Shown: piece after piece, positions 19,171 to 33,760 of the stretch | Numbering within the stretch: the first letter of the stretch is position 1 | Layout of the letters: each line of letters begins with the position of its first letter | DNA from: Clostridia bacterium | GTDB taxonomy: Bacteria; Bacillota; Clostridia; Christensenellales; CAG-138 | Assembly: GCA_017451295.1 (NCBI GenBank) | Contig: JAFSPW010000057.1 | Coordinates: 8,227 to 72,226, forward strand | DNA length: 64,000 bases | Reading direction: 5' to 3' | Notes under the pieces: generated by a model | What the model was told of the DNA's origin: nothing | Databases searched by the model: none | The model's input: the letters and a program-made list of their open reading frames with translations, nothing else | Program-made: the position numbers and the translations under genes

Positions 19171-19908
19171 CTATCTTTTGAGCATGGCGGCGGAGCTGAC
19201 CTTAGCCGCCTCCAAATCCATATTGCACCACAGCCGATAGAGTTTGACCCCCTGGCCGATACGCCCCACCAGCGGGAGGGTTTTTAGCATGCCGTCCCCG
19301 CCCTCGGGCCGATAGGCCTGGCGAATAAGGTCCGCAAAGGCCTCGCTGAAGCTGATTTCCTCGATGCGGTTGCTCTCTCCCCGATGGATGATGCAGATAG
19401 CCTGCAGGGGCAGAATCTCGTTGGTGCCGTAGTTCTCCTTGCCCTGCCAGGGGTCAGCGCAGCAAAGCACCTGCCCGTCCGGTTCCAGGGCCAAAAAAGG
19501 CTTGTCCCCGTTTAGCACATGGGCCTCGGGCAGCAGCTCAAGCCAGAGCCGTGTGTGGGTGGTCTTTCCCGTGCCGGAGGGAGCCGTGAACATATAGGCC
19601 CGGCCGCCCACAGCCAAGCAGGACCCGTGGAACAACAGCTTGTCCTTCATCAGCAGCGCATCGGCCACCTTGCGTAAGATGGCCTGGGTCTCCATGTAGC
19701 GGTCGGAATACCGCCGGGGAGGCACCCCGTCCAGCTCGTCCTGGAGCCTGGCCTGCTCCCGTTCATAGGAAAGGTCCTCCGGGGAGATGGCAACGAAAAG
19801 TTCCGCCGGGCCGGAGGATAGATAGTCCCTAAAGAAGGACCGGGTATCCGGGCACAGGGCGCTGATGCCTATCTTCACGCCGCAAAGCTCTATGCTAAAG
19901 TCGTGCAT
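19171..19908 (-). CDS. HPr-kinase-related (HprK C-terminal-like) P-loop protein
   Basis: Start trimmed to MHDFSIELCG after AAAGGA. It has the P-loop APSGTGKTTH in the context LFHGSCLAVGGRAYMFTAPSGTGKTT, which is typical of the HprK-like kinases found in RiPP clusters. Confidence 0.6.
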   Translation of the reverse strand: MHDFSIELCGVKIGISALCPDTRSFFRDYLSSGPAELFVAISPEDLSYEREQARLQDELDGVPPRRYSDRYMETQAILRKVADALLMKDKLLFHGSCLAVGGRAYMFTAPSGTGKTTHTRLWLELLPEAHVLNGDKPFLALEPDGQVLCCADPWQGKENYGTNEILPLQAICIIHRGESNRIEEISFSEAFADLIRQAYRPEGGDGMLKTLPLVGRIGQGVKLYRLWCNMDLEAAKVSSAAMLKR

Positions 19909-19941
19909 TGGCTGTCCTTTCTGTCTGTGTACCTTGCAGCT

Positions 19942-19970
19942 ATTATAGTGGAAAGCCGGTTGGTTGGCAA
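19942..19970 (-). promoter_or_regulatory. near-consensus promoter for the HprK-like/S24 peptidase genes
   Basis: On the minus strand: TTGCCA (19965-19970), 17 nt spacer, TATAAT (19942-19947). Confidence 0.65.
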
Positions 19971-19996
19971 GCGGGGAAATCCCTCCCGCATGCACA

Positions 19997-20025
19997 TTGA
20001 CAGCCGGGGATATTTTTTCTATACT
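19997..20025 (+). promoter_or_regulatory. near-consensus promoter for the PqqD-ABC exporter genes
   Basis: TTGACA (19997-20002), 17 nt spacer, TATACT (20020-20025). It sits back-to-back with the minus-strand promoter. The palindrome GCGGGGAAATCCCTCCCGC lies between the two -35 boxes. Confidence 0.65.
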
Positions 20026-20073
20026 GTGTATATACAATCATGGGGCAATGGGCCCCGGAAACAGGAGCAAGAT

Positions 20074-20343
20074 ATGCAACTTCATCCAGACTTTGTTTTG
20101 CAGCAGATGCCGGGGGATATGGCCGTGCTGGTGCCCACCGGCGAGGCGGGGGAACGGTATAGGGGCATCGTCCGCCTCAACGAAACCGCCGCTTTCATCG
20201 TGGAACGGCTGCAGCAGGACACCACCCGGGAGCAGATTGTTGCCGCCCTGGGGGAGGAATACGAAGGGGACGAAAAGGACTTTTTTGCCTCCGTGGACCA
20301 CACCGTCAGCGAGCTCAAGAAGGTAGGCGCCATCCTTGACTAA
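20074..20343 (+). CDS. PqqD-family protein (RiPP recognition element-like)
   Basis: 89 aa, with ATG after AGGAGCAAGAT. PqqD-like pattern MAVLVPTGE...IVRLNETAAFIVERLQQDTTREQIVAAL. Confidence 0.7.
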   Translation: MQLHPDFVLQQMPGDMAVLVPTGEAGERYRGIVRLNETAAFIVERLQQDTTREQIVAALGEEYEGDEKDFFASVDHTVSELKKVGAILD

Positions 20344-20401
20344 GGAAGCCAAAAGAGAAGCACCGAAGCAGGACCGGCGCCTGATTTCCAAGGAACGGGG
20401 C

Positions 20402-22120
20402 ATGTCCCTGTCCACGCTTCGCTGGCTGTATCAGGTTCCCGGCAAGAAGCGGGGGTACGTGCTGTCCCTGTCGGCCCTGTATGCCCTGACGGGCTCCATG
20501 GGCGTGGTCTATGCCCTGCTGATGCGCGCCATTGTGGATAGCGCCGTGGCGGGGAACATGACCGCCTTTTGGGAAAATGTGCTGTACATCGTGGCTTTGG
20601 TAGCGGTGCGCCTGGGGCTCAACGCCCTCATCCGGTGGCTGGACGAGCAGGCCAGAACGGACCTCGAGAATTGCTTCAAGCAGCGGCTGACAAAAAGCAT
20701 CCTCAAAAAGGACTATGCCTCCGTCAGCGCCATCCACTCCGGGGAATGGATGAACCGCCTCACGAGCGACACCGGCGTGGTGGCCGGGGGTTTTGTGGAC
20801 ATTCTGCCGGGCTTGGTGGGCACCCTGGTCCGCCTTGTCAGCGCCCTCGTCATGATTATCGCCCTGGATGCCTGGTTTGCCTATATCCTTCTGCCCGGAG
20901 GTCTGCTGCTGGTAGGGCTGACCTATGCCTTTCGCAAGGTGCTCAAACGCCTCCACAAGTCCATCCAGGAGGCGGACGGCCGCCTGCGTATCTTCTTGCA
21001 GGAGCGCATCGGCGGGCTGCTGATGATTAAATCCTTCGCCGCCGAGGAGGCTACCGAGGCTGCCGCAGCGGACTATATGCGCCGGCATAAGGCCGCCCGT
21101 ATGCGCCGCCTTCGCTTCTCCAACTTCTGCAACGTGGGCTTTGGCGCCGCCATGCAGGGCATGTATCTGCTGGGCGCCGTCTACTGCGCTTACGGTATTC
21201 TAAACGGCACCGTGTCCTACGGCACCATGACCGCCGTGATGCAGCTTATCGGCCAGGTCCAGGCGCCCTTTGCCAACATCAGCGGCTACCTGCCCCGGTT
21301 CTATGCCATGTCCGCCAGTGCCGAACGGCTCATGGAGGTGGAAAACTTTGCGGACGACGGCACCGAAAACCCCCTGTCCATGGAGGCTGTCAACGGCTTC
21401 TATGAGCAAGAGCTTGCGGCGGTGGGCCTGCAGAATGCGTCCTTTACCTATTATGCCCAGGCCGAAAGCATGGACCAGCTAAATAAGGACAACATGCCCG
21501 TGGTACTTAGGGACTTTTCCGTGGAGATTTCCAAAGGGGAGTATGTGGCCTTTACGGGTCACAGCGGCTGCGGCAAGTCCACGGCCCTGAAGCTCTTCAT
21601 GTGCATGTACCGTCTGGACGGCGGCAGCCGCTATATCCGCACCACCGACGGCATGGAGTGGGACCTGTCCCCCGATTGGCGGCGGCTCTTTGCCTATGTG
21701 CCGCAGGGGAACCAGCTGGTCAGCGACACCATCCGCCGCACGGTGGCCTTCTCGGATGTGGAACGGGCGGGGGAGGAGGAAGCCCTTTGGCAAGCGCTGC
21801 AAATCGCCTGCGCCGATGAGTTCGTCAGGGAGTTGGAAAACGGCCTTGACACCAAGCTGGGGGAGAGGGGCACCGGCCTTTCCGAAGGCCAGATGCAGCG
21901 CATCGCCATCGCTCGGGCCATCTTCTCCGGCAGCCCCGTGCTGCTGCTGGACGAAGCCACCAGCGCCCTGGACGAGCAGACGGAGGAACGGCTCCTTCAG
22001 AACCTGCGGAGCCTGACGGACAAGACCGTCCTCATCGTCACCCACCGCCCCGCCGCCCTGAAGATCTGCGACCGGGTCCTTCACTTCACGGAGGATGGGG
22101 TAGAGACGGCGAAAAGCTGA
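20402..22120 (+). CDS. ABC exporter, fused permease/ATPase
   Basis: N-terminal six-TM domain plus an NBD with Walker A GHSGCGKST, signature LSEGQMQRIAIARA and Walker B VLLLDEATSALD. There is no C39 peptidase domain. Start at ATG 20402 after AAGGAA; the alternative TTG at 20336 overlaps pqqD. Confidence 0.88.
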   Translation: MSLSTLRWLYQVPGKKRGYVLSLSALYALTGSMGVVYALLMRAIVDSAVAGNMTAFWENVLYIVALVAVRLGLNALIRWLDEQARTDLENCFKQRLTKSILKKDYASVSAIHSGEWMNRLTSDTGVVAGGFVDILPGLVGTLVRLVSALVMIIALDAWFAYILLPGGLLLVGLTYAFRKVLKRLHKSIQEADGRLRIFLQERIGGLLMIKSFAAEEATEAAAADYMRRHKAARMRRLRFSNFCNVGFGAAMQGMYLLGAVYCAYGILNGTVSYGTMTAVMQLIGQVQAPFANISGYLPRFYAMSASAERLMEVENFADDGTENPLSMEAVNGFYEQELAAVGLQNASFTYYAQAESMDQLNKDNMPVVLRDFSVEISKGEYVAFTGHSGCGKSTALKLFMCMYRLDGGSRYIRTTDGMEWDLSPDWRRLFAYVPQGNQLVSDTIRRTVAFSDVERAGEEEALWQALQIACADEFVRELENGLDTKLGERGTGLSEGQMQRIAIARAIFSGSPVLLLDEATSALDEQTEERLLQNLRSLTDKTVLIVTHRPAALKICDRVLHFTEDGVETAKS

Positions 22121-22145
22121 CCTTTGCAATTTAAAAGGTTCGTCA

Positions 22146-22190
22146 ACGAATTTGGATAGCCAAATTCGTGATGTAAGGGTATGCCCTTAC
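22146..22190. terminator. two adjacent perfect hairpins between the convergent ABC exporter and the island operon
   Basis: ACGAATTTGG-atag-CCAAATTCGT (22146-22169) and GTAAGGG-tatg-CCCTTAC (22173-22190). Confidence 0.55.
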
Positions 22191-22202
22191 ACCCCGGCGA
22201 CA

Positions 22203-23795
22203 TTACAGGCTGAAATCCGCCGTGTTGTCGCGCTGATAGGAACACCAGTTGCCGTTTTCGATCAGTTCTTCGCGGGCAATCAATCGAAGCAGCGCATCGC
22301 ATTCGCCGAAACGGTCGATGCGATCGAGGACGGCGGCATAAAAGCGCTCCATTTTGACATGATCGGATGTTGTGCGCGAAAGCGACAGGCGTCCGTAATA
22401 GTTTGAGATAAACAGCGTTGCCGCCGAAATGCTGCCGAGCAGCAGCTTGGACAGCGTACGATAGAATTCGGCGTTTGCGATTTTCTGCGAAAACGGCAGC
22501 AAGCCGCCCCAAATGAGCTCGAAGAGCAACACCGCAAGATACAGCAGAATACTAACCCAAAGAGCAACGCGGACGATGCGTTCGCTCCCCTTGTGCGTGC
22601 GCTTTGACCAACCGACGGACCGTTCGTGATACCTGCGCTGTGCGTCGACCCATGCGTCACGGATGCGATTTGACCGATCCGGCGGAATGCCGACAGACAG
22701 AACTTTCAGCGCGGAGGCGACCCATCCGGTTTCCGTCTTGCCGGTCCACGGCAAAACATCGGCGGCGGAAATGCCGCTTCCGGCATAGCGTAAAAACGCC
22801 TGCACGCGCAGTCCCTCCGCCAGCATCCGATATTCGAGATAGCGCCGGTGCGAAGCAAAGCGGTTCCCGTACCGCTGCACAAGCCATGCAAGCAGCAGCA
22901 TTCCGCCGCAAACGAGAATCATTCCGTGCAATTCGGCTTCGTCATATAGAAGAAACGCAATCGTGATGACCGTGCTGATGATCGCAAGCGCGGCAAGAAT
23001 GCGGCGGTACTGTTTGGCAAAACGAACGCTCAAAGAATCCGCCTTTGCATACAGAGTTTCCATACGGTCGAGCTGCCTGTCCGGTTCCCGATCTGACGGC
23101 AAAAGCGCAGATTCGGATGCGGGCGCTTTCTTCGCCAGCCGGTTGAACTCGTCGGTCCGGGACAGCGTTTCGTCAAAAGCGGCACGGTCCCCGAGAAAAC
23201 GCACCGCTCCGGCGGCACTCGTTTCGTCACCTTTCCGCGGCGAAAGGATATGCAGCACGGGACAGCAGCCCCCGAGCGGAATCGAATCTTCCGGTGAATA
23301 ATCGCCGTCCAGAGCGCAATGCACGATCGCCGCCGTGCCGCAGTCTGAAGCGGGCGATTCCGCTCCGTCCCAAAGCGCGAGCAGCACATGGGCGTGCGAA
23401 GCAACATATACGCCCGCCTGCCGATACGCAAAGTCCCGATCCTTCGACGCGGGTGCGCGCTCCGTGTTGGGCGCAACAAAACAATCTTCCGCCGCGTCGC
23501 AAAGGGCCCGGAATGCGGGAAGCGCTTCCCCGGAAAAGTCCTTTTCATATTCCGTCCGATCCATCGGAAAAACGGCGATCAGCGACACACAAAGCGCCTG
23601 TGCGACCTCGGCGCAGAGGCGATCCGCACCGTCCGCAAGGCTGTTTTGCATCACGATTTTGGAATGCGGGCACCTGCTTTGCAGTGCCATGAGTTCCTGT
23701 TTGACTGCGTTGTATAAAACGTCGCGGTCCTCCGGACGGATGTCTCGATGTCCCGTTACGCCGACGACGATCGGGATCGTATCCTGCTCTGCCAT
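22203..23795 (-). CDS. SLOG-like (YpsA/LOG/DprA-type Rossmannoid) domain fused to four TM helices (2 x SLATT-like 2TM modules)
   Basis: 530 aa. The N-terminus has IVVGVTGHRD...SLADGADRLCAEVAQAL...AHVLLALWDG..SDCGTAAIV, matching the SLOG pattern G-TGhR / G-A-G-D / ..D.....G. TM helices: ILAALAIISTVITIAFLLY, GMILVCGGMLLLAWLV, IVRVALWVSILLYLAVLLFELIW, LLLGSISAATLFISNYY. SD AAGGAG. Domain calls are by eye. Confidence 0.6.
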   Translation of the reverse strand: MAEQDTIPIVVGVTGHRDIRPEDRDVLYNAVKQELMALQSRCPHSKIVMQNSLADGADRLCAEVAQALCVSLIAVFPMDRTEYEKDFSGEALPAFRALCDAAEDCFVAPNTERAPASKDRDFAYRQAGVYVASHAHVLLALWDGAESPASDCGTAAIVHCALDGDYSPEDSIPLGGCCPVLHILSPRKGDETSAAGAVRFLGDRAAFDETLSRTDEFNRLAKKAPASESALLPSDREPDRQLDRMETLYAKADSLSVRFAKQYRRILAALAIISTVITIAFLLYDEAELHGMILVCGGMLLLAWLVQRYGNRFASHRRYLEYRMLAEGLRVQAFLRYAGSGISAADVLPWTGKTETGWVASALKVLSVGIPPDRSNRIRDAWVDAQRRYHERSVGWSKRTHKGSERIVRVALWVSILLYLAVLLFELIWGGLLPFSQKIANAEFYRTLSKLLLGSISAATLFISNYYGRLSLSRTTSDHVKMERFYAAVLDRIDRFGECDALLRLIAREELIENGNWCSYQRDNTADFSL

Positions 23796-23808
23796 ACGCT
23801 CTCCTTTT

Positions 23809-25839
23809 TCAATCGAGTTTGTAAATCCGCAGACCGTCGAACTTACGGATCAGCTTCAGCATAGAATTGAATGGTTTCCAATCCTTGCCCTGATCCTTCT
23901 CGGACAGGTTGAGATAGTGCCGCGCAATCTCCAGTTCCCCAAAATCGCCGTTCATACACAGCTTGTGCTGCCGCATCTGCTCCCGCAGCGCATAGCGGTT
24001 CGGCTCGTCGTCTGTCGTTACGGTCTCATACAGGCTTCCTGCCGTCCAGCCCATCGCGCGGTGTGCGCGCACCCAGCGGGCATGCTCCATCGGCGCGAAC
24101 ACGGCGGTCTGCTCGGGGGTGAATGCACGCAGCATTTCAAAGTCCACGGGGCGATCCGTATAGAAGCAGCCGATCGCGTTCAGATATTTCGAGAAGCTTT
24201 TGACCTGATTGATGTTGCTGAGCTGATATTCGAGCGACATCGTGTCAAAGTCGCGTTCGAGCTGTTCCACGGAAATCTCCTGTTCCCGCCCCTCATACCG
24301 GTAGCGTCCGTTGATTGCCACGGCAAAGTCGTACATGTGTAAAAAGCTGCTGCCGGACAGATAGGTATGCTTGCTTTTGCGATCTGCGGTGCGCAAAAAA
24401 GTCGTGATAAACAGCGGATAGCCGCTTAGATCGACGATCTTTTCAATGTCCGTTCGGAAACGCTGCTCCTTTTCCGCCATATCGCTGTACGCTTTGAGAC
24501 GCGGCGGCGCATCCTGCCGGTCGCCCTGCTCCCATGCGCGGTAGCGCGCTTCATATTCTCCGATCTTTTCGGACTCCTCCGCGTCGAAGCAATAGAGCGC
24601 ATGGATCATGCCTCTGCCGAAATCGAACTCAGCGTCCATCGGATGCAGTTCAGTGCGTGAATTCCGACCGTAAGCGGTGCGATCCCAGCATTGCAGTTCG
24701 TCGCACAGCATCAAAAGGTATGCAAGCGGATGCAGCTCGGCTTTCAGCGGCGGCTTGCACTTGTCCCTGTCCTTATAAAACGCGATCGCGAATTTAAAGA
24801 GACTGTTGTGCAGCATGATCGCGGTCAATGCATCGATGTGCGCTGCGGTCAACGCCTCTTCGCCGAGCACTTCGCAAAGCTCCTGATACAGCCGTGTTGC
24901 GGAAAAGTATGCATGATCCATAAAGTACCCGAACCGGTTCGGCTCGGTCGGCTTGCGGCGGATCGTATCGAGCAGGTCATCCTCAAAAATGTCATATGCC
25001 GTACCGAGGCGCTTTGCAATGCCGTAGGCAAGCAAATCTTCGACGGACTCGAATGGACGGGAAAACAGCTTTGCAAAGTGCGCCTTTTGCGCGTCGCTCA
25101 TGCCGGACAGATAATCGAGATCGCGATACGCCAAAAACAAGCTGCCCTTGCCGCGCTTTTTGCGATCGACCTCAAAATAAGCCAACACCTGTTCAAACGG
25201 GATCTCAAACGGATAGCCGATATCATGAAACAGCGCGGTCAAGCCCCAATATTCGAGAAAGAATGCCGCAGCACGATGCTCGTCCCGTTCCGGCGTGAAC
25301 CCGTAGAACGCCTGAAATGTCTTTCGGAAATCCTCGTTTGTTTCAAAGATTGCAAGACCGAGCGCAAACACATAGACCGAGTGCGAATAATGATCGCGAT
25401 GCTTCATCAGCAGCGAGCTTGCGTTCGATTCAAACTCCGACAAGAGCTCGATCATCTTGCTCGACCGCCCGTAAGCGCCGAGGAACATCTTCAAAAAACA
25501 GTAATAAACGGTATAAGCATCCTCGGCAACGCCGGAGTCGATGAAGTTCTCCAGCTCACGCTCAAGGCAGAGTCGGTCGATGTCCATCTGCATATTGTAC
25601 GGGATCTGATTCGGATAAAAGCTTGTGCCGAGATACTGCCCGGTTTCGTCCTCCCGCTTCGCCGTCTCGGATGAAAAGCGCAGTCCCTCGCACCGCTCGT
25701 GCAAAAACCGCAGCGCGGCGGACTTCAGATCGCTGCCCGTTCTGCCCGCGCCGAACATCGCCGGTTCAAACGGACCGACATCCACGTTATAGCGTTCTTT
25801 GTTGATCCTTCGCATCTGTTCCAAAGCCGTGTATGCCAT
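23809..25839 (-). CDS. HD-superfamily phosphohydrolase with RyR-like C-terminal domain
   Basis: 676 aa with an H...HD...D set: HRDHYSHSVYVFALG, LTALFHDIGYPFE, LLMLCDELQCWDRTAY. The C-terminus FAPMEHARWVRAHRAMGWTAGSLYE resembles the RyR repeat (E-x-W...GW-x-G). SD GGAGG. Confidence 0.65.
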   Translation of the reverse strand: MAYTALEQMRRINKERYNVDVGPFEPAMFGAGRTGSDLKSAALRFLHERCEGLRFSSETAKREDETGQYLGTSFYPNQIPYNMQMDIDRLCLERELENFIDSGVAEDAYTVYYCFLKMFLGAYGRSSKMIELLSEFESNASSLLMKHRDHYSHSVYVFALGLAIFETNEDFRKTFQAFYGFTPERDEHRAAAFFLEYWGLTALFHDIGYPFEIPFEQVLAYFEVDRKKRGKGSLFLAYRDLDYLSGMSDAQKAHFAKLFSRPFESVEDLLAYGIAKRLGTAYDIFEDDLLDTIRRKPTEPNRFGYFMDHAYFSATRLYQELCEVLGEEALTAAHIDALTAIMLHNSLFKFAIAFYKDRDKCKPPLKAELHPLAYLLMLCDELQCWDRTAYGRNSRTELHPMDAEFDFGRGMIHALYCFDAEESEKIGEYEARYRAWEQGDRQDAPPRLKAYSDMAEKEQRFRTDIEKIVDLSGYPLFITTFLRTADRKSKHTYLSGSSFLHMYDFAVAINGRYRYEGREQEISVEQLERDFDTMSLEYQLSNINQVKSFSKYLNAIGCFYTDRPVDFEMLRAFTPEQTAVFAPMEHARWVRAHRAMGWTAGSLYETVTTDDEPNRYALREQMRQHKLCMNGDFGELEIARHYLNLSEKDQGKDWKPFNSMLKLIRKFDGLRIYKLD

Positions 25840-25851
25840 GGTGAGTCCTCC

Positions 25852-28800
25852 TTATTCGATTTCCAGTTCAAAGCCGTATTCGCCGCCCAAGGATCGGATC
25901 GCCTGCTGCATATTGTTCGATACGCACGCCGCGCGAAGATGCCGCAGCGTCAGAAGCGGCGAGATGTCGGTAAGCTCCGACGTCCACGACACCTTGATGT
26001 ACTCGAGTTCGGGGTGCTGCTCGATGAAGGTCTTAAATGTTTCGTTGGTGAAGCGGCAGTTGCCCGCATGGAGTTCGTGGATTTTCGCTTGCTTTACGGC
26101 GTCCATCCAAAGCGCGCAGTCCGTGTTGAACACATTGAGACTCTGATACTCCGGCACGGCGGACAGCACCGCATACTGCTCGTCCGGGATCTTCCCCTGC
26201 AAATTATCTATGCTGAGAACAAAATATGGCACATTGCCGTCCTCGTCCGGCGTCATACAGAACGTATAGTCGATTTTGGCGATTGCGCTGATGTCCGAAA
26301 GATTGTTGCGGCTGATATTGAGATCGGTCAGATGCAAAAGCTTCTCAACGCCCTCGATCGAAGTGACCGTTTCCGTGTCCGCCACGTTGATGATCTCGAG
26401 CGACTTTAGATCAAACAGCGGCGACAGATCGGAAAGATTTGCCCAGTTGGCTTGGAACCGGCGCAGCTTTGCGGCCGTCTCGATCCCGCCGAGTGATTCG
26501 ACCGGCTGACCGTACAGATATAGCGATTCGAGGTTTGGAAGACGGGTCAAAAATCCAAAGTCGGTGATCTGCCCCTCCCCGATCGGGAAGCGCTCGCCGG
26601 TTGCGTTGTCGTGAATATACAAGTCCGGTTTGTCGCCGCCGTCCCAGTCCTCTTCGAGCCACAGGTCGCCCCACGGATCTTTCATCACATAGTTTCCGAA
26701 GAATCCGATCTCGCGCACGCGTGAGAGCACGTCATCCGGCAGGGCAACAAATTCGTCAACCGTCATCAGCGGGAAGTCGAAGGAGAGATTGCACTCTGCG
26801 GGGATCGCGCCGAGCGGCGCAAGATCGTCCAGCTTGAGTCCGTTCAGATCTGCCCATTGCAGCTTCTGCAGGTTTTGGATGCCTTGTATGCTTGTCACGC
26901 CGGTATATTGCAGCTTCAGTTCTTCTAGGTCCTGCAGCGTAAACACCGGGGATGCATCCATCAGGGTCGGTGTGAATGTAAGTTCGAGTTTCTTCAACTT
27001 CTGCAGATTCTGAATCCCCTCGATCGACGTCAGCGACTGATCGATCAGGTTCAGATGTTCGAGCCCGGTCAGCTTGGACAGCTTGGAAAAATCGGTCATT
27101 GTACCGGGGTGCTCGATTGCGATATCATGGCTGGGGTCACCGTCGTTCGACCGCAGCACAAAGGTCGGTTTGTCGCCGTCCCATTGCTGATCGAGCCAAT
27201 ACTCCTCCCAGGAGAAGATCACATCGCCGACTGCATGCAGATCCCTGACGCGGCTCAACACCGCGCTTGGCAGCGTGTCGAGCTCGTCAAAGGACAACAG
27301 CTCCACGTGCGGCTCGGCCGACTCCCACCATCCGTCCGGATACTCCACCTCGAAGTTGTCCAAAAGCTTGCTTTCCACAAGCAGCTCAGCCTGCGTCTGC
27401 AGATGAGCCGGCACCTTGAGATAGCGCCCTTTGTGCGCATAAAGCGGGGAAAGATCGGTCACGCCGTCCAGGTCGAACAGTTCGATGTAATAATTCTCCT
27501 TTTGAAAGGACGCGAGCGCCGACAGGTCCGTCAGATCAAAGATGCTTTCGAGCCGCAGCCGATCCGCGTGCAGCGCCGAAAAATCGGGCAGGGTAAACAG
27601 CTGTACCAGCTCCAGATTGTCAAAGGTTTTTTGCTCGATCGCCGACCAGTCGACCAGGCGCGAGCAGTTCTGCACGCGAAGCGTCGAAAGCTCGGGCAGA
27701 TGCTCGAGGCCGTTTAGGGAAGTGAGCAGCGGACAGTCATCCAGTGTCAACTCCTGGATATCCAGCGCGCGCAGCGTTTCGAGCGAGCGCACGCAGTGCA
27801 GCGTCAGACTGCGGCCGACCTCGGGCAGCTGCATCAAATCCACTTCGCCGTCATTGAGATTGGTCAAACCGTCGCGGTTCCAATATTCAAACTCTGCGAC
27901 CGGCGTGTTGTGAATGTAAGGCAGCGCGCTGCCGTTGCGATCCGTGATGTTCAGATAGCTGTATCGCGGCAGGGCGGCAAGTCCAGACCAGTCATCCACC
28001 TCGGAAATGCCGAAGGAAAAGGTGTTTTTGTTGACAATCTCCGACAGGAAATCGACGTCGTGCAGACCCGACCCGTAGATGGCAAGATCGTGGAGGCGCG
28101 GCAGCTTTACGATGGGAGAGATGTCCGCAAGATTAAAGACGCTGTTTAGGTGAACCTGCAAAATTCCCGTGCAGCTTTCGAGCGCGGAGATGTCGGAAAG
28201 ATGATCAAGCCCCTCGATATGCACGCGCCGCAGACTTGTATGATTCTCCAGACCTTTGAGGGAACGTACGCCGCGCGTATACCAAAGCTCGATTTCCTCA
28301 AGATTCTTTGCGTTACTGAGCCATGAAAGATCGTTCAGCGCTTCGTTGTGCAGATCGACATAATGCAGGCTCGTGTTGTCCGAAAGCGCGGACATGTCAG
28401 ATAGGTCTTCGCTTTGATAACCCACAAACAGGCGTTCAAGATGCAGCTTGTTTTCCAGTCCGTGCAACGATGTGAGTTGCGGCAGAGAGAACTCGACTGT
28501 TTCGAGTGCGGAAGATTCTGAGAGGAAACTGAGATCACGGTTTGCGCTGCCCTCGATCGTGAAATACTTCAGTTTCGAGCATTGCTTTAGACCGTCGAGA
28601 TTGAGGGCGGTATCGCTCCAATCGCCCCATAGATGGAGGGACGTGAGTGCGGGCGGCGCAAACGATGATAAGTCCTGCGGCATCGGCGATAGAAATTCCA
28701 AATGCACGTCGTTCAGGCGTCCGCAGCCGTTGAGCGGTGAAAAATCGGCGATGGTGTTGCCGCGGTATTGAAAGCAGCTCATCTGCGATCCAGTAACGCC

Positions 28801-29679
28801 CGAAAGATCGGTGATGCTGCAATCAAACAGTTCCAAAACGCCGAGATTCAAAAGTCCCGACAGATCGGGAAGCTCGCCAATGACTCGCACAAGCGTGATG
28901 AATTTTACGTTCTTCATGTACCGCAAAAAGTCGAGATCGTTCCACGCAGAAAGTTCGATCTCGTGTCCGTCCTCATTGCTGTACCAGCGCGCGATCCCGT
29001 CTTCTTTGGTGCGGTTTGCAAAGTACTCCGCGCCGATGCGCGCCCAGCCATTTTGCTCCGCAATCCCCTCATCACCGGTGAAGTAGTGCAGCGTATCGCC
29101 GACGATGATCAGCTCATAGACCTTATTTAGATCCTCGGCGGTAAGCCCCGCTTCGGAGGGAATGACCGGTTCCGCCGTCGGCGCGGGTGTGCTCTTTTGC
29201 AGCATCGTTTCCTTTGCGGGAAGCAGTTTTGTTGCAAGGAAGATACCTCCGGCGATCACGAGCGCGGCGGCAGCGGCCGCAAGGATGATCGGCAAAGGCT
29301 TTTTTGTTGCTTCAAACGGCTTTGCGGTTGCGATACGCTGTGCAAGCTCTTCTACGGAGTACCGTTCGGCGAAGATCGTGTTGCGGGAATACAGCGCGTT
29401 TTTCAGCAGCTCCGGCGGCGTTGAGCCGTCGAGGTTTATCGGCACCGTCTCCACGCCCTTGGCGTCATTGGCGAAGAACGTTTCCATAAGTGTGATGGCC
29501 TCGTTCAGCCGTTCGGACGTGAACAGCAGCATGACGCCGCTTTTGGTCGGCATTTCGCTTTCGTCTGCGATCTCAAATCCCTTTGCCCGCAGCGCATCGA
29601 GGATCGGTGCGACGCGTTCTTTGTCGGCTTCGGCAAACAGCGGGGACAACTTCTTTTTTCGGTATGCGACTTTTGTCAT
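25852..29679 (-). CDS. giant type-II membrane protein: diverged TIR-like N-domain, 1 TM, ~1100-aa internalin-type LRR ectodomain
   Basis: 1275 aa with no signal peptide. The TM helix LPIILAAAAAALVIAGGIFLATKLL lies around aa 127-150. Dozens of LxxLxxLxLxxxxIxDLSxL repeats follow (e.g. LEEIELWYTRGVRSLKGLENHTSLRRVHIEGLDHLSDISALESC). The N-domain aligns loosely with the TIRs of the two upstream paralogues. SD AAGGAGAC. Confidence 0.65.
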   Translation of the reverse strand: MTKVAYRKKKLSPLFAEADKERVAPILDALRAKGFEIADESEMPTKSGVMLLFTSERLNEAITLMETFFANDAKGVETVPINLDGSTPPELLKNALYSRNTIFAERYSVEELAQRIATAKPFEATKKPLPIILAAAAAALVIAGGIFLATKLLPAKETMLQKSTPAPTAEPVIPSEAGLTAEDLNKVYELIIVGDTLHYFTGDEGIAEQNGWARIGAEYFANRTKEDGIARWYSNEDGHEIELSAWNDLDFLRYMKNVKFITLVRVIGELPDLSGLLNLGVLELFDCSITDLSGVTGSQMSCFQYRGNTIADFSPLNGCGRLNDVHLEFLSPMPQDLSSFAPPALTSLHLWGDWSDTALNLDGLKQCSKLKYFTIEGSANRDLSFLSESSALETVEFSLPQLTSLHGLENKLHLERLFVGYQSEDLSDMSALSDNTSLHYVDLHNEALNDLSWLSNAKNLEEIELWYTRGVRSLKGLENHTSLRRVHIEGLDHLSDISALESCTGILQVHLNSVFNLADISPIVKLPRLHDLAIYGSGLHDVDFLSEIVNKNTFSFGISEVDDWSGLAALPRYSYLNITDRNGSALPYIHNTPVAEFEYWNRDGLTNLNDGEVDLMQLPEVGRSLTLHCVRSLETLRALDIQELTLDDCPLLTSLNGLEHLPELSTLRVQNCSRLVDWSAIEQKTFDNLELVQLFTLPDFSALHADRLRLESIFDLTDLSALASFQKENYYIELFDLDGVTDLSPLYAHKGRYLKVPAHLQTQAELLVESKLLDNFEVEYPDGWWESAEPHVELLSFDELDTLPSAVLSRVRDLHAVGDVIFSWEEYWLDQQWDGDKPTFVLRSNDGDPSHDIAIEHPGTMTDFSKLSKLTGLEHLNLIDQSLTSIEGIQNLQKLKKLELTFTPTLMDASPVFTLQDLEELKLQYTGVTSIQGIQNLQKLQWADLNGLKLDDLAPLGAIPAECNLSFDFPLMTVDEFVALPDDVLSRVREIGFFGNYVMKDPWGDLWLEEDWDGGDKPDLYIHDNATGERFPIGEGQITDFGFLTRLPNLESLYLYGQPVESLGGIETAAKLRRFQANWANLSDLSPLFDLKSLEIINVADTETVTSIEGVEKLLHLTDLNISRNNLSDISAIAKIDYTFCMTPDEDGNVPYFVLSIDNLQGKIPDEQYAVLSAVPEYQSLNVFNTDCALWMDAVKQAKIHELHAGNCRFTNETFKTFIEQHPELEYIKVSWTSELTDISPLLTLRHLRAACVSNNMQQAIRSLGGEYGFELEIE

Positions 29680-29714
29680 GACGGTCTCCTTGTCCTGTGC
29701 TAAGGGGAAATGGG

Positions 29715-30890
29715 TTACGGGACTAAAATGACATCGAACGCCGCATCGTCCGGGAAGATCAGCGGCAGCATATCGATACTCACAGTCACGGTCTCAAGCG
29801 ATGGCTGTGCGTTCAGCACGGAAAGGTCGCGCACATTGCTGTGCTCCAGGTGAAGTGTTTTAAGGCTCGGCAGCGTAGGCAGCGTCGAAAGGTTCACGCT
29901 TAAACAACCCGCAAGGCTCAATTCGTTCAAAAGCACGAGCCGATCCAGTGCAGCAAGCGATTGTACCGGCTGCATCAAAAGGGAAAGAGTTTTGAGATAC
30001 GGCATTCGTCCGATCACGGAAAGATCCTCGACAGAACCCATCAGCGGCTTTGCGCCGTTTACGGTGTATGCGCCGGCTGTGTATTCGATTGCCGACAGAT
30101 CGTTCAGCACCATCGTGCCGCAAAAATGCAGTTCCGTCACGCCGCCGAGGTCGGACAGCTTTATATCGCCATCAGAAATACCCAGCGCATTGCGAACCGC
30201 TGCTTCCTGCTTTGCATCGGGGAATGTGACCGTATCCATGCCGGGAACATACGGTGTCGCCGTCGGCTCCGGCGTTTCGGTCGGCACAGGCGTGGCGGTC
30301 GGCGTCAGTCGTGCCGTAGGTACGGGTGTCGGGTTTGGCAGCAGATAGGCGTCCAATCGACCGGTCATAAGCGCATACAGACCTGCCGCTGCAGCGGCAA
30401 ACAGCAGAATCGCGAGCACAAGCATCAACCAATCAAAACGCAGTTTTTCAAACGGCTTGCGATAATATGCGCGCGTGATCTGTTTGCAGGAAAGAATGGT
30501 TTCGGCACGCGCAGATGCATCGGAACCGGACGAAAGCCTTGTGCATTGTGAAAGCAGATCGTTCCATTCTGCGTTCGGCGCCGTATCCGAAAGCGGCAGC
30601 AGCAGAACCGGCTTCTTCAGAACAAGCGCTGCTTCGATCTCGCTTCGGCAGTTGGGTGAAGCAAAAGCTGTTTTTGAAACAAAGAACAACACCATAGAGC
30701 AGCTTTGCATATGCTCTTCGATGTTCTTCGGCCAATCGCTGCCCGCCGGAATGCCCTCGTCGTACCACAGTCGCAGTTTGCGGTTGTGCAGCAGTGTAAT
30801 GACTTTGAGAACCGCCTCGGAATCGCGGTGCGAATAACTGATGAAAAGGTAGGGACGGCGACCCTCATATGGCTTAAAGTAGACGCTCAT
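29715..30890 (-). CDS. TIR domain - TM - Pro/Thr linker - LRR protein
   Basis: 391 aa. TIR signature PYLFISYSHRDSEAVLKVITLLHNRKLRLWYDEGIPAGSDW ... VLFFVSKTAFASPNCRSEIEAAL (C-x-x-E catalytic-Glu context). TM helix WLMLVLAILLFAAAAAGLYALM. Linker PNPTPVPTARLTPTATPVPTETPEPTATP. C-terminal LRRs. The start overlaps the stop of the upstream gene (ATGA). Confidence 0.75.
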   Translation of the reverse strand: MSVYFKPYEGRRPYLFISYSHRDSEAVLKVITLLHNRKLRLWYDEGIPAGSDWPKNIEEHMQSCSMVLFFVSKTAFASPNCRSEIEAALVLKKPVLLLPLSDTAPNAEWNDLLSQCTRLSSGSDASARAETILSCKQITRAYYRKPFEKLRFDWLMLVLAILLFAAAAAGLYALMTGRLDAYLLPNPTPVPTARLTPTATPVPTETPEPTATPYVPGMDTVTFPDAKQEAAVRNALGISDGDIKLSDLGGVTELHFCGTMVLNDLSAIEYTAGAYTVNGAKPLMGSVEDLSVIGRMPYLKTLSLLMQPVQSLAALDRLVLLNELSLAGCLSVNLSTLPTLPSLKTLHLEHSNVRDLSVLNAQPSLETVTVSIDMLPLIFPDDAAFDVILVP

Positions 30891-31696
30891 GATCCGCCTC
30901 CCGTCAGCACGATATCATACCGTTTAAGAAGCGGAGCGGCATCGACCGCGTTCGCCTGATTCAGTTCAATTCGGGAAAGATTGGAAAGCAGGGCAAACTC
31001 ATCCGTGCGTTCGGGTAAAGCGTCAAAACGAAGGGTCGTAACCGTTACAATCGATTCTTCGGTGATCGGTTCGCCGCTGAGCGCGTCGCGTACCGCTGCA
31101 GTCAGAACGGGATCGGAAAAGAAGACGGTATCAGCAGTTTTTTCAATCGATGGCGCACGAAGATGTCGCACAAGAACCGCTGCGCCGATCAGCAGAAACG
31201 CCGCGGCGACAATTGCGGCTGCAATCGCAAGAACAGCCTTTTTGCGAACGGGCAGCGGCGGACCGATCAACTCCTGCGAAAATCCGTCTGCATGGAGCAA
31301 TGCTGCTTCCGCCGCATCGACGCTGCGCGGCTTGATGTGCACTGCGCGCGAATCCAACCCCATGGACAGCGTGCTTTTTGCAGTATCTACGTCTACGCTG
31401 ATGATCGGGATGCTTTTCTCCTGACAAACGAGAACTGCGCTCTTTACCGCCTGATCCGTACGCGCACGCTTGGTTTGATACAGAACCACAAGCCGTGCCT
31501 TGCGCATACGCGCATCGCGCCGTTCGCGCTCTGCTACGGTGCCGCTGTGCCCCGTGGGGTACCAGATGCGGCAGCCGCGTTCGTACAGCCGTCGAAACAG
31601 CGGCCGCAACCGATCCCTATCCGCATCTGAAAAGCAAAAATACAGATACGGCTGATCGCCGCCGTACGGCGGAAAAAGCTCCGAAAACCTCGCCAT
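30887..31696 (-). CDS. TIR-like domain - TM - short LRR-like tail protein
   Basis: Start trimmed to ATG 31696 (MARFSELFPPYGGDQPYLYFCFSDADRDRLRPLFRRLYERGCRIWY) after GGGGAGG; the longer ORF would run through the promoter. TM helix AVLAIAAAIVAAAFLLIGAAVLV. The catalytic-Glu position appears to be substituted (..RTDQAVKSAVL). Confidence 0.6.
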   Translation of the reverse strand: MARFSELFPPYGGDQPYLYFCFSDADRDRLRPLFRRLYERGCRIWYPTGHSGTVAERERRDARMRKARLVVLYQTKRARTDQAVKSAVLVCQEKSIPIISVDVDTAKSTLSMGLDSRAVHIKPRSVDAAEAALLHADGFSQELIGPPLPVRKKAVLAIAAAIVAAAFLLIGAAVLVRHLRAPSIEKTADTVFFSDPVLTAAVRDALSGEPITEESIVTVTTLRFDALPERTDEFALLSNLSRIELNQANAVDAAPLLKRYDIVLTGGGS

Positions 31697-31730
31697 TCGT
31701 AACCTCCCCGCGCGCTCCGCTTTTGCTTCT

Positions 31731-31774
31731 ATACTACCAAGATATATCGTATATGCAAATGCTGTTTCTGTCAA
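31731..31774 (-). promoter_or_regulatory. candidate promoter(s) of the TIR-LRR/HD/SLOG operon
   Basis: Two overlapping options on the minus strand. First: TTGACA (31769-31774), 17 nt, TACGAT (31746-31751). Second: TTGCAT (31753-31758), 16 nt, TGG-TAGTAT (31731-31736). Confidence 0.45.
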
Positions 31775-31896
31775 TCCCAAACGTAAAAAGCGCCGGAAGG
31801 GTTACCGTTTCAAGTCAGACGCCATGCGTATCCATTTGCTTTTGTACCGATGGTTGTGCGCTCCTTCATTCCCTAAGGGCAATTCTTAATCGGTGC

Positions 31897-31921
31897 AAAG
31901 AAAAAGGCGCATTGCTGCGCC
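31897..31921 (-). terminator. second intrinsic terminator downstream of rplT
   Basis: On the minus strand: GGCGCA-gcaa-TGCGCC followed by TTTTTCTTT. Confidence 0.6.
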
Positions 31922-31949
31922 TTCGAGCCTCTTGTCTGATATTCAAAAC

Positions 31950-31980
31950 ATGCGGAGAAAACACTCTGCTTTCTCCGCAT
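31950..31980 (-). terminator. intrinsic terminator of the infC-rpmI-rplT operon
   Basis: Perfect 11-bp stem ATGCGGAGAAA-9 nt-TTTCTCCGCAT. On the minus strand it is followed by GTTTTGAAT. Confidence 0.7.
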
Positions 31981-32072
31981 ATCCTTAGCTCTTACTGCAA
32001 AACCCGATATGGATTATTTGCTTTCGTATCGGCCTCCCCCTTTAAGGGAAGCTCCTTTGCAGCTGTACTTGC

Positions 32073-32432
32073 TTACGCCTTCTTGGCGGCCAGGGCGGTG
32101 TCCACCAGGGCCTTGAAAGCGGCCATATCGGTGACGGCGAGGTCAGATAGGACCTTCCTATTCACTTCCACACCAGCCAGCTTCAGGCCGTTGATGAGGT
32201 TGGAGTAGTTGGTGCCGCACAGCCGGGCACCGGCGTTGATACGGGCAATCCACAGGCGGCGATACTCACGCTTCTTGTTCTTGCGGCCCACGAAAGCATA
32301 GGCCATGGACTTCATCACCTGCTGGGAGGCAGCCCTATACTGCTTGGACTTGGCACCGAAGTACCCTTTAGCCAGGCGCAGCACCTTGCGGCGCTTCTTA
32401 ACGGAATTTACGCTTCTCTTAATTCTTGCCAT
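32073..32432 (-). CDS. rplT: 50S ribosomal protein L20
   Basis: MARIKRSVNSVKKRRKVLRLAKGYFGAKSK..., the canonical L20 sequence. Confidence 0.97.
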   Translation of the reverse strand: MARIKRSVNSVKKRRKVLRLAKGYFGAKSKQYRAASQQVMKSMAYAFVGRKNKKREYRRLWIARINAGARLCGTNYSNLINGLKLAGVEVNRKVLSDLAVTDMAAFKALVDTALAAKKA

Positions 32433-32445
32433 GGTTCATCTCTCC

Positions 32446-32643
32446 TTACTTATAGGGAATCAGCTCGCGAATCTTCTTCTGCTCTTCCTCGGCGATATAG
32501 CCGGTCTGGCGCAGGCCGCGAAGCCTCTTGGTGGTCTTTTTGGTGAGAATGTGGCTCTTGTAAGCCTTGCCGCGCTTGATTTTGCCGGACTTGGTCACAT
32601 CAAAACGCTTTGCCGCACCCCGATGGGTCTTGATCTTTGGCAT
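32446..32643 (-). CDS. rpmI: 50S ribosomal protein L35
   Basis: [24 protein letters not shown]..., the canonical L35 sequence. Confidence 0.97.
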
Positions 32644-32665
32644 GTTCTTTCCTCCTGTTGAGATT

Positions 32666-33175
32666 TTAATTCTTCGGTGCCAGAACCATATACATGTTTC
32701 TGCCTTCCTGCTTGGGGGGTCTTTCCTGACTGGCTACATCGGAAACCATGTTATAGAAGGTGGTCATAACATCTGCGCCGATATCGCCCCGGGTGATTTG
32801 GCGGCCCCTGAAACGGATGCTCACCTTCACCTTGTTGCCGTCCTGCAAAAACCGGGTGCAGGCCTTGGCCTTCACTTCCATGTCGTGCTGGTCGATGGTG
32901 GCGGAGAGGCGAATCTCCTTGATTTCGATGACCTTCTGGTTCTTGCGCTGCTCCTTCTCCCGCTTCATCATGTCGTAGCGATGCTTGCTGTAGTCCATGA
33001 GCTTGCAGGTGGGGGGCGTGGTGCTGGAGAGCTTGACCAAATCCAGCTCCCGCTCGTCGGCCAGACGCTGGGCGGCCCGGACATCCATGATTCCCAGCTG
33101 TACGCCGTTTTCGTCAATCAGGCGAACTTCCGGATCCCGGATTTGCTCATTGATAGGCAGTTCTTGTGTAGCGAT
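32666..33175 (-). CDS. infC: translation initiation factor IF-3 (non-AUG start, ATC candidate)
   Basis: The IF-3 sequence begins at [32 protein letters not shown] lies 9 nt upstream of ATC at 33175. The 21 codons upstream in the ORF track are non-homologous and lack an SD. Confidence 0.85.
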
Positions 33176-33289
33176 GACTGGACACCTCCTATAAAAAATG
33201 GCGGACGCATCTGCGCCCACCACAAGAATGATTCCCATCAGACCGTGCCTGATTCACTACATCGGCAGGTGAGAGGCGGGCGCCTCTGC
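33176..33289 (-). promoter_or_regulatory. infC leader, candidate L20-responsive leader/attenuator
   Basis: 114-nt untranslated region upstream of infC. A GC hairpin (GGGCGCAGATGCGTCCGCC) is followed by ATTTTTTAT just before the SD. The position matches the Firmicute L20 leader, but the structure has not been verified. Confidence 0.4.
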
Positions 33290-33760
33290 TTAAGCATGAA
33301 CATTATAGCGGCGGTTTTGCCCGCTGTCAAGGGCTTTTGCCGCTTTTTCCCCATATTTTTGCCCCAAACGGTCCGCCCAGTTCTCCGGGTATCGGTCATA
33401 GTACCCAATGCCTCGCCGCCGGCGATAGCGCACCAGGGCGGGCAGGTTGGCCCAGAGGAAGGAGGGGAGCCCCACAAGAGGAAGGTACAAAGGCCCGAGC
33501 AGCAACGACTGCCTGCTGTGCCCGTATTCATGCATCAGCAGCCGGGTTTCTTTCTCCTTATCTAGCCCCTCGGGCACGAAGAGGAACATCCCCAGGGAGA
33601 CGCCGCCCCATTTGCCGTCATGGAAGACGGCCAGGGCGCCGCCCATCCATCGCCGCCGACACCGGCGGTACAGAACCAGCAGCCCCAGCCCCAGAAGGCT
33701 CTGCACCAGGCCCCAGCTCCATTGGAGGAGGATATATGCCGCTTTCTGACTTTTTTTCAT
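33290..33760 (-). CDS. hypothetical membrane protein with HExxH motif
   Basis: 156 aa with hydrophobic N-terminal helices and HEYGH (a possible zinc-metallopeptidase motif). Confidence 0.55.
   Translation of the reverse strand: MKKSQKAAYILLQWSWGLVQSLLGLGLLVLYRRCRRRWMGGALAVFHDGKWGGVSLGMFLFVPEGLDKEKETRLLMHEYGHSRQSLLLGPLYLPLVGLPSFLWANLPALVRYRRRRGIGYYDRYPENWADRLGQKYGEKAAKALDSGQNRRYNVHA

Follow-up and report, generated by a model that had tools for sequence, protein, structure and literature searches.

What would a bacterium do with an operon in which three membrane proteins with TIR or TIR-like domains and leucine-rich repeats (LRRs) are encoded next to a putative HD/RyR hydrolase and a SLOG protein with four transmembrane (TM) helices? 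The question is raised by a locus of a Clostridia bacterium of the CAG-138 lineage, located in a window of 64,000 nucleotides (contig JAFSPW010000057.1, positions 8,227–72,226, assembly GCA_017451295.1) which was analysed as a whole. The five genes, named A to E, follow each other in this order and in one direction on the minus strand, from 31696 to 22203. A preliminary description made from the sequence had seen in them a TIR-signalling, Thoeris-like immune system of undescribed composition. On the evidence presented below, we lean towards a Thoeris-like pathway in which a TIR enzyme would deliver a messenger derived from ADP-ribose (ADPR) to a SLOG/SLATT membrane protein, extended by surface sensors and by a built-in signal processor of the RyR-HD type.

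The clearest TIR domain of the set is found in protein B (391 aa, gene at 29715–30890, minus strand). The canonical TIR domain (residues 16–101) is followed by a TM helix (155–173), a Pro/Thr-rich linker and a short LRR ectodomain. The match with Pfam TIR_2 lies above the gathering score (E-value 5.6e-18, 66 bits, cut-off 28), and Pfam ThsB_TIR was detected as well (7e-5, 23.6 bits, cut-off 21.2). PADLOC recognised B alone among the five proteins, on generic ThsB models which match it at about 1e-5. The profile of the domain could be aligned with the NADase Cat1, its best match in PDB, and with the TIR domains of Toll-like receptors (TLRs), with a glutamate at the conserved position. This residue, Glu84, is present in all orthologues of B (19/19).

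Proteins A and C are more distant. Protein A (269 aa from an ATG, gene at 30887–31696, minus strand, in a frame open up to a TTG at 31780) displays a TIR-like domain (residues ~3–145), a TM helix (158–176) and a short ectodomain made of an LRR N-cap motif and approximately two repeats. Taken alone, A stays below the threshold of TIR_2 (0.008, 17 bits). Comparison of the A family with the TIR family of B by hhalign gave a probability of 98.6% (E-value 5.8e-16), and a tail motif, DTVxFxD...AAVRxAL, is common to A and B. Protein C (1275 aa, gene at 25852–29679, minus strand) starts with a diverged TIR-like domain (residues ~9–118), which precedes a TM helix (131–149) and an internalin-type LRR ectodomain of about 1100 aa. 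Alone, it did not match any TIR profile; its N-terminal domain aligned with the TIR domain of B by hhalign (90% probability, E-value 1.7e-6), and a local hidden Markov model (HMM) of this domain matched 16 A/B proteins. The residue aligned with Glu84 of B is Ala, Arg, Asp, Asn or Ser in A, never Glu, and the same column is variable in C, where Glu is not conserved. Judging from these residues, the set probably consists of one TIR enzyme (B) and two non-catalytic TIR proteins (A and C). The repeats of C were recognised by the LRR_4 model (E-value 4.8e-24). Matches of C with internalin-like NCBIfam models hold at the domain level only (internalin_A, 112 bits for a cut-off of 1600); C is not a class 1 internalin and has the LRR type alone in common with that class.

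A single strongly hydrophobic helix follows the TIR domain in each of the three proteins, and no signal peptide was found in A, B or C. In B, five Lys or Arg residues precede the helix and one follows it, ahead of the Pro/Thr-rich linker. By the positive-inside rule and the nature of the linker, an orientation with the N-terminus inside and the LRRs outside is firmly predicted for B. For A and C, the same orientation is suggested by analogy with B, since the charge bias around their TM helices is neutral. TIR or TIR-like domains were thus recovered by Pfam or hhalign in all three proteins, with the single TM helix and the LRR parts that the preliminary description had assigned to them; its placement of the LRRs outside the cell stands for B and is a prediction by analogy for A and C.

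Protein E (530 aa, gene at 22203–23795, minus strand) was predicted to contain a cytoplasmic YpsA-like SLOG domain (residues ~6–225) and a helical module with four TM helices, of which the first hairpin (residues 249–334) resembles DUF4231/SLATT. An AlphaFold2 model calculated from 39 homologues reached a predicted local distance difference test score (pLDDT) of 88.5 and a predicted TM-score (pTM) of 0.86. The full-length profile of E retrieved nothing meaningful from PDB. In Foldseek, the top match of E was YpsA of Bacillus subtilis (2nx2; E-value 1.8e-4, probability 1.0, target TM-score 0.64), followed by DprA, ShosA, the Moco carrier protein and TM1055 (probability 0.99–1.0). All five are members of the SLOG superfamily. 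Within the E family, Pfam YAcAr, a YpsA-related SLOG family, was found in 23 of the 39 members (best 3.5e-5), and DUF4231 (PF14015) in 30 of the 39 at an E-value ≤0.01 (best 9.2e-8). DUF4231 is also the family name given by NCBI to E homologues; on E it overlaps the NCBIfam SLATT models, of which SLATT_3 and SLATT_1 reach 0.03–0.6 only.

Three TM helices of E are clear (266–284, 288–306 and 410–428) and one is weaker (~448–468). In the model, the C-terminal half consists entirely of helices, including two TM hairpins, and the charge bias places the SLOG domain together with all soluble helices on the predicted cytoplasmic side. The SLOG-like Rossmannoid domain with four TM helices proposed for E at the outset was therefore retained. 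An internal duplication of the two hairpins was considered and rejected (hhalign probability 1%). A near-invariant acidic motif, F-L-L-Y-D-E-A-E (residues 281–290, window 22944–22955), occupies the short loop that joins TM1 to TM2 on the outer side; should E be a channel, this motif could bind cations or confer selectivity.

Protein D (676 aa, gene at 23809–25839, minus strand) combines a probable HD-type metal-dependent phosphohydrolase core (residues ~147–386) with a C-terminal tandem RyR (R12) region (residues ~498–676). Its AlphaFold2 model showed a pLDDT of 83.8 and a pTM of 0.89. The full-length profile of D gave nothing meaningful against PDB; a C-terminal profile or a more diverse alignment was needed to reach RyR structures. 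The profile of the long type of D then matched the repeat structures of RyR1, RyR2 and RyR3 (E-values down to 3.8e-17), a profile including both subtypes matched the RyR1 repeat at 1.6e-27, and the RyR-like structure 3nrt of Bacteroides thetaiotaomicron was retrieved with the D-family profile at 1.6e-13. Pfam RyR (PF02026) detected a short D subtype (about 575 aa, 26% identical) at 2.4e-13 and, weakly, 19 of the 36 long-type members; D of the window alone was not matched. The first half of the tandem repeat is degenerate. At the level of sequence profiles, the C-terminal RyR (R12) domain of D is confirmed.

A possible activity of this domain is indicated by the phage protein RyDEP, which contains a PF02026 RyR domain and was described in a 2026 preprint as a glycosidase opening 2'cADPR and 3'cADPR, two isomers of cyclic ADPR (cADPR), while homologues sequester both (PMC13232231). 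In RyDEP, H75 serves as base, W78 stacks on the adenine, H100 binds the phosphates and D117 serves as acid (PMC13232231). These residues correspond to H586, W589, H625 and D653 of D, as mapped by the spacing in RyR1 (H+3 W, H+25 H, H+42 D) rather than by direct alignment with RyDEP. Both D subtypes retain the motif E-H-x2-W (H586, W589) and D653 without exception. At the position of H625, His is conserved to at least 90% in the long subtype, whereas the short subtype has Ser or Thr. With these residues, D is predicted to bind, and probably to cleave, the signal. In the putative HD core, H150/H153, H205-D206, D308-H309, H344 and D380 are invariant among 35 members with identities down to 30%; H153, H205-D206 and D380 would make up the metal-binding motif H...HD...D. 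The segment matched by Pfam HD surrounds H153 and H205-D206. By these motifs only, D is a probable HD phosphohydrolase.

The association of the five genes is not restricted to the window. In the protein collection, more than 850 homologues of E and more than 2100 of D were found, almost all unnamed, and the same five genes occur in the same order at three E homologues (52–67% identity) located in three unrelated contexts. A scan of one genome per species revealed approximately 250 relatives of E, from which 80 loci were retrieved; all belong to uncultured Clostridia whose assemblies derive from metagenomes, sampled in ruminants or from other guts. Associations were counted by six-frame HMM searches in the 40 loci offering at least 9 kb upstream and at least 4 kb downstream. 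A TIR open reading frame (ORF) lies within 10 kb of E in 35 of these 40 loci and at least three TIR genes are present in 25, while D was found in 30, either TIR or D in 37, and neither in 3. The TIR ORFs are nearly always on the strand of E (124/133). In the window, the junctions calculated from the coordinates are −4 nt for A/B (ATGA), 35 nt for B/C, 12 nt for C/D and 13 nt for D/E, exactly as first reported; the five-gene order and the tight spacing, including the 4-nt overlap, are kept across Clostridia families in unrelated contexts. Because this arrangement recurs in dozens of species-level genomes, it is far beyond chance, which answers the check on co-occurrence proposed in the preliminary description.

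Gene maps of the loci were filtered for a higher GC content at third than at first codon positions (GC3>GC1) against long antisense ORFs in GC-rich DNA, a filter which loses genes in loci of lower GC content. The arrangements observed were A-B-C-D-E, A-B-C-C'-D-E, D-(x)-A-B-C-E, E-A-B-C, and D-E pairs beside TIR-WD40 genes, with C present in one to three tandem copies across loci. Where A-B-C is missing, TIR-WD40, TIR-PQQ (PQQ propeller), TIR-TPR or polytopic TM-TIR proteins are encoded instead. In most members of the TIR-WD40 and TIR-PQQ groups, the TIR domain is directly followed by one TM helix, so that TIR-TM-ectodomain represents a recurring design. The TIR-TPR proteins have no TM helix and are cytosolic. 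A natural fusion was found as well: in the protein P0331 (L087:8001–10475, 824 aa), a core and a RyR domain of the D type are continued at the C-terminus by a SLOG domain that is related to the one in E. No TIR gene was found within 8 kb of this standalone gene, suggesting that D/SLOG pairs may work with a distant or a different signal source.

Additional proteins were observed at the variant loci. A conserved protein of 181–201 aa, with neither a Pfam match nor a TM helix (L038:4312–4917, L048:4285–4890, L034:295–867 and L057:3671–4216), sits between D and A in the D-x-A-B-C-E loci L038 and L048 and may be a sixth component. A protein of 686–699 aa with a TM helix at 163–181 and no Pfam match is encoded beside TIR-PQQ (L054:4304–6364, L068:7746–9845); it may be a paralogue with a TIR-like domain diverged beyond detection. 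An insertion of 1.4 kb between C and D (L007:6517–7945) carries an ORF of 499 aa, for which Pfam gave no match and which also lacks a TM helix. In L053, L067, L084, L057 and L032, the partners of E and/or D include Ser/Thr kinases of very large size, among them a protein of 2111 aa with three kinase domains, as well as a phosphatase resembling dual-specificity protein tyrosine phosphatases (PTPs), a DUF4062-NACHT protein and a clostripain-like C11 protease. The composition of these loci recalls the conflict systems with multiple components treated by Kaur et al. (2020).

Comparison of the 64-kb window with its closest relative, locus L007, by blastn revealed identities of 82–94% in four blocks within 32038–22184 and nothing outside; the conserved cassette was accordingly delimited at 22184–32038 (minus strand). 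With L043, L030 and L004, homology is likewise confined to the cassette. Divergence within it is uneven. A and B are 91–98% identical to their counterparts in L007, with a number of synonymous substitutions per site (dS) of 0.04–0.2, whereas the ectodomain of C (residues 160–750) is 58–64% identical with a dS of 0.75–0.99. D shows a dS of 0.42 and a ratio of non-synonymous to synonymous substitutions (dN/dS) of 0.073, indicative of very strong purifying selection, and the homologues compared with it are 63–97% identical. C is the fastest-evolving, recombining part of the cassette, and the mosaic divergence points to recombinational replacement of the sensor surface. Conservation of D next to a mosaic, fast-evolving ectodomain of C is the pattern expected of a sensor plus an enzyme.

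Regarding the mobility of the cassette, its boundaries showed neither terminal direct nor inverted repeats, the only repeats being internal and derived from the LRRs, and no recombinase gene, be it for an integrase or a transposase, was seen at the cassette. A defined mobile element is thus unsupported. The adjacency to rplT was rejected as a conserved context, as no other locus has rplT or infC nearby. Among 2.9 million viral contigs, E and D gave 2 and 1 matches, respectively, and a prophage or phage origin was rejected on this basis.

Several described systems come close to parts of this operon. Type VII Thoeris is composed of the TIR protein ThsB and the SLATT-domain effector ThsH, with canonical cADPR as signal, and its effector presumably breaches or gates the membrane once it has bound the ADPR derivative made by the TIR protein (bioRxiv 10.64898/2025.12.03.692087). 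As in type VII, the gene of a predicted TIR enzyme stands here beside that of a membrane protein with a probable SLATT/DUF4231-type module of two TM helices. In contrast to type VII, E adds an N-terminal YpsA-like SLOG domain and has four TM helices, and the operon counts five genes instead of two, with three membrane-anchored TIR-LRR proteins and an HD-RyR protein. With type III Thoeris, which is defined by multiple TIR proteins and a SLOG-domain effector, the operon shares the presence of several TIR genes next to a SLOG-containing putative effector; it differs in that its TIR proteins are TM-LRR proteins and its effector is a membrane protein. B reached 19.1 bits with NCBIfam ThcB4 of type III Thoeris (cut-off 220), and A, C, D and E had no ThcB match. 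As this score is far below the cut-off and E has no type III match, these are not the same families.

Like RyDEP, D contains the PF02026-type domain with apparent equivalents of H75, W78, H100 and D117; unlike RyDEP, it is cell-encoded in a TIR operon, and its 676 aa comprise a probable HD domain of large size as well as a tandem RyR repeat. The resemblance extends to animal TLRs, which also have an LRR ectodomain, a single TM helix, a cytoplasmic TIR domain and heterotypic TIR partners. Here, however, the order is reversed (TIR-TM-LRR, type II) and a signal peptide is missing; the repeats belong to the internalin type of bacteria, and B has retained the catalytic Glu of NADase TIR domains. 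The resemblance is most likely the result of convergent domain shuffling and not of orthology.

None of the system models of PADLOC and NCBIfam, the latter including a type III Thoeris model, captures the five-gene set, so that no match to an already named system was obtained. The claim of an undescribed composition is upheld in this sense, and has to be narrowed in view of the precedents offered by type III and type VII Thoeris and by RyDEP. Burroughs, Zhang, Schaffer, Iyer and Aravind are said to have predicted, in 2015, SLOG-SLATT and TIR systems as nucleotide-centred conflict systems; the logic reportedly leads from a TIR nucleotide generator via a SLOG sensor to a SLATT pore with two TM helices, SLATT being named for its association with SLOG. 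Later papers of the Aravind group restate the prediction of nucleotide-centred conflict. In the texts searched, including these later papers, neither RyR nor LRR was mentioned in this context.

In the Thoeris-like pathway that we favour, a surface ligand or a perturbation of the envelope would cluster the TIR domains of A, B and C, the non-catalytic domains of A and C acting as scaffolds or co-receptors. Clustering would turn on the NADase/cyclase of B, which would convert NAD+ to a messenger derived from ADP-ribose, of the same type as the cADPR isomers. This compound would bind the SLOG domain of E, whose module of four TM helices would open or oligomerise, and the resulting change in membrane permeability would lead to growth arrest or abortive infection. 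D would bind the messenger via its RyR domain and, together with the HD site, degrade it, so that a threshold would be set and the system returned to its resting state. As an alternative, D could be a second effector.

A number of observations weigh against this pathway or against single elements of it. Concerning the topology, the TM helices of A and C are flanked by three Lys or Arg residues on either side. Concerning E, the protein of the window remains below the gathering score of DUF4231 (21.9 bits for 24.7). Concerning the HD core, Pfam HD (PF01966) reached an E-value of 0.034 with D (14.9 bits, cut-off 22), the D profile matched no HD structure in PDB, and the best Foldseek match of the whole D model in PDB was the HD domain of Ppx at an E-value of 0.2, with phosphodiesterases above 1. 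Within the family, Pfam HD was found in 12 of 36 members at an E-value ≤1 (best 0.003); ten diverged members yielded matches with RyR and none with HD, and the whole D model gave no significant match in BFVD (best E-value 0.05). In the description of D as an HD phosphohydrolase with a RyR-like C-terminus, the RyR part is well founded and the HD part is carried by motifs below the profile threshold. Concerning the linkage, no TIR gene was detectable within 10 kb of E in 5 of the 40 loci and D was missing in 10, and diverged members of the D family also occur alone in unrelated contexts. Concerning defence, PADLOC has no model matching A, C, D or E. The flanking genes are housekeeping genes in every annotated context and differ at each locus; among 136 flank proteins, PADLOC (1e-10) matched only a handful, one to three per listed family, mostly on generic kinase or ATPase models (neighbours in ~55 contexts). 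Housekeeping flanks and few PADLOC matches amount to the absence of a defence-island signal. The domains and their linkage thus speak for the Thoeris-like signalling proposed initially, and the immune role attached to it finds no support in the genomic context.

Defence against phages or competitors is kept as the default function, by analogy, and physiological surface sensing is nearly as likely. An explicit alternative, which we regard as possible if somewhat doubtful, retains the same chemistry in a physiological outside-in pathway: a ligand from plant, host or neighbour, or the state of the envelope, would be sensed, E would mediate an ion flux gated by the second messenger of the TIR enzyme, and D would end the signal in the manner of a phosphodiesterase acting on cyclic nucleotides; the pathway would then not be a defence by abortive infection. 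The housekeeping flanks with no enrichment of defence genes, the very strong purifying selection on D and the near absence of E and D from the 2.9 million viral contigs are in line with it, as are the Ser/Thr kinases, the PTP-type phosphatase and the TPR proteins of variant loci, which are typical of signal transduction. An operon-encoded degrader would suit reversible signalling, and the retrieved loci all come from a single group defined by its habitat, the Clostridia of rumen and gut. On the other hand, the closest relative already carries the cassette at another genomic place, and no other locus has it beside rplT; together with the mosaic ectodomain of the sensor and its varying copy number, this is what an accessory or conflict trait would show. 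Moreover, all characterised bacterial systems combining TIR with SLOG or SLATT are anti-phage, and the DUF4062-NACHT and clostripain-like proteins found in some loci are typical parts of conflict systems.

The role of D could also be of another kind than the signal processing assumed in the Thoeris-like pathway. As a second or even the principal effector, D would sense the TIR product with its RyR domain and degrade nucleic acids or nucleotides with its HD domain, E being auxiliary. D is the most conserved component (see the identities and dN/dS above), and D-E pairs persist where other TIR proteins replace A-B-C. Most tested phage RyR proteins bind cADPR isomers and do not cleave them, which means that RyR can be a pure binder, and in the short D subtype the counterpart of RyDEP H100 is Ser or Thr. 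Two effectors in one Thoeris operon also have a precedent in ThsH plus ThsI. Yet the equivalents of the RyDEP catalytic dyad, H586 and D653, are invariant in both subtypes and favour catalysis, and the 10 loci of 40 which lack D keep their TIR genes and E, which would be expected of an accessory regulator, whereas a main effector should not be dispensable. The HD fold, moreover, is no more than probable. An effector role of D is considered possible, on the unlikely side.

Some bacterial TIR systems act by NAD+ depletion. A version without second messenger, in which the clustered TIR domains would deplete NAD+ directly or act as TLR-like adaptors, with E and D using another ligand, appears very unlikely here. 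In its favour, Cat1, the best PDB match of the TIR domain of B, was deposited as a filament assembly, and A and C have the appearance of non-catalytic adaptor TIRs. Against it, a YpsA-type SLOG and a RyR R12 domain, both binders of ADPR signals, are strictly linked to TIR genes; this linkage points to a diffusible TIR product and is hard to explain otherwise. Hardly credible, finally, is an inverted topology with cytoplasmic LRRs, similar to nucleotide-binding LRR receptors (NLRs), or a chance neighbourhood of five functionally unrelated genes: the neutral charge bias of A and C and the cytosolic TIR-TPR partners without TM helix would fit such a picture, but the 5-to-1 positive-inside bias of B followed by the Pro/Thr-rich linker, the improbable export of a folded TIR domain of 130–150 aa without signal peptide, and the gene order and tight spacing preserved across Clostridia families in unrelated contexts contradict it.

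Ribosome-binding sites (GGGGAGG, GGGAGG, AAGGAGA, AAGGAGGA and AAAGGAGAG) were located 5–9 nt ahead of the five starts. A candidate sigma-70-type promoter, TTGACA-17-TACGAT, lies on the minus strand at 31746–31774 with 10 of 12 hexamer matches; read from 31774 to 31746, it is the better of only two promoter-like matches in 10.3 kb. Just past the stop codon of E, two adjacent 10-bp hairpins (22147–22190, minus strand; dG −27.5 kcal/mol, z = −4.07 against shuffled sequences) are likely the terminator of the operon. The terminator scan passed over them for want of a T-run directly behind the stems. The initial reading of the sequence had placed a GGAGG-type Shine-Dalgarno sequence before each of five co-directional genes, one or more candidate promoters within 31731–31774 and two closing hairpins, all of which were found again. 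Upstream of the promoter, two hairpins at 31903–31982 (minus strand), recognised by reading the sequence and, for 31924–31903, by the terminator scan, end the transcription of rplT and insulate the cassette. An Rfam search of 21900–33400 gave no match with any RNA family.

Ahead of these terminators and of the promoter, a block of 70 nt (31969–32038) is conserved at 81–94% in L007 and L030, and homology with L043 starts inside this upstream block, at 31959. The upstream genes of L007, L030 and L043 differ and rplT is absent there. The block holds a weak hairpin and has no Rfam match; it may be the 5' edge of a transferred module, or a regulatory element. The genes around the operon have housekeeping functions (pheS/pheT, trmO, ABC transporters, rplT, infC, M3 peptidase, SpoIVB). 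Directly adjoining it, the region 19171–22120 contains a minus-strand gene for a P-loop protein of 288 aa (PSGTGKTT), followed on the plus strand by a small ORF (19903–20343) and an ABC exporter of 594 aa (20336–22120). By eye, the P-loop protein, for which Pfam gave no match at an E-value of 1e-5, presumably belongs near the HPr-kinase-related proteins, and the small ORF is taken to resemble a PqqD-type peptide-binding protein. The three genes look like a small cluster for maturation and export of a ribosomally synthesised and post-translationally modified peptide (RiPP).

The combinations of TIR with SLATT and of multiple TIR proteins with SLOG, as well as the action of RyR on cADPR isomers, are already known. 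What is new here, as far as can be judged from the sequences, is the attachment of predicted surface-exposed repeat sensors to TIR domains and the presence of an operon-encoded RyR-HD protein. In the literature searched, neither TIR-TM-LRR proteins nor a cellular RyR partner in TIR operons has been described. To our knowledge, characterised bacterial TIR signalling (Thoeris types) involves soluble TIR sensors which respond from inside the cell. No surface sensor for bacterial TIR signalling was found in the literature searched, and if the predicted topology holds, bacteria would possess surface sensing of a TLR-like type.

The most far-reaching version of the pathway is a true outside-in TIR receptor, in which one catalytic and two non-catalytic TIR-TM-LRR chains would form a hetero-oligomer, use a cADPR-type messenger and act on a SLOG-gated channel and a RyR-R12 enzyme. 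The extracellular ligand could be a phage tail or a competitor, or else a molecule of host or plant origin. This version as a whole is judged improbable. The SLOG sensor fold has reportedly been recognised in TRPM channels by the Aravind group. If the outside-in receptor were true, one bacterial operon would unite counterparts of animal TIR/cADPR, RyR and TRPM signalling parts, and D would represent the first host-encoded off-switch for TIR signals.

The RyR (R12) domain of D, cell-encoded in a TIR operon and with equivalents of the cleavage residues of RyDEP, points to a cellular source of a phage counter-defence domain. It also suggests that the operon itself supplies the means to end TIR signals, a role comparable with that of ring nucleases in type III CRISPR. 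The authors of the RyDEP study leave the binding of cADPR-like ligands by animal RyR channels as an open question (PMC13232231). With TIR, SLOG and RyR in one operon, a tractable bacterial system is available for the binding of cADPR-like ligands by RyR-type domains. As the hosts are abundant uncultured rumen bacteria, the system may matter for phage–host interactions or for interactions between microbes and plant fibre in the rumen.

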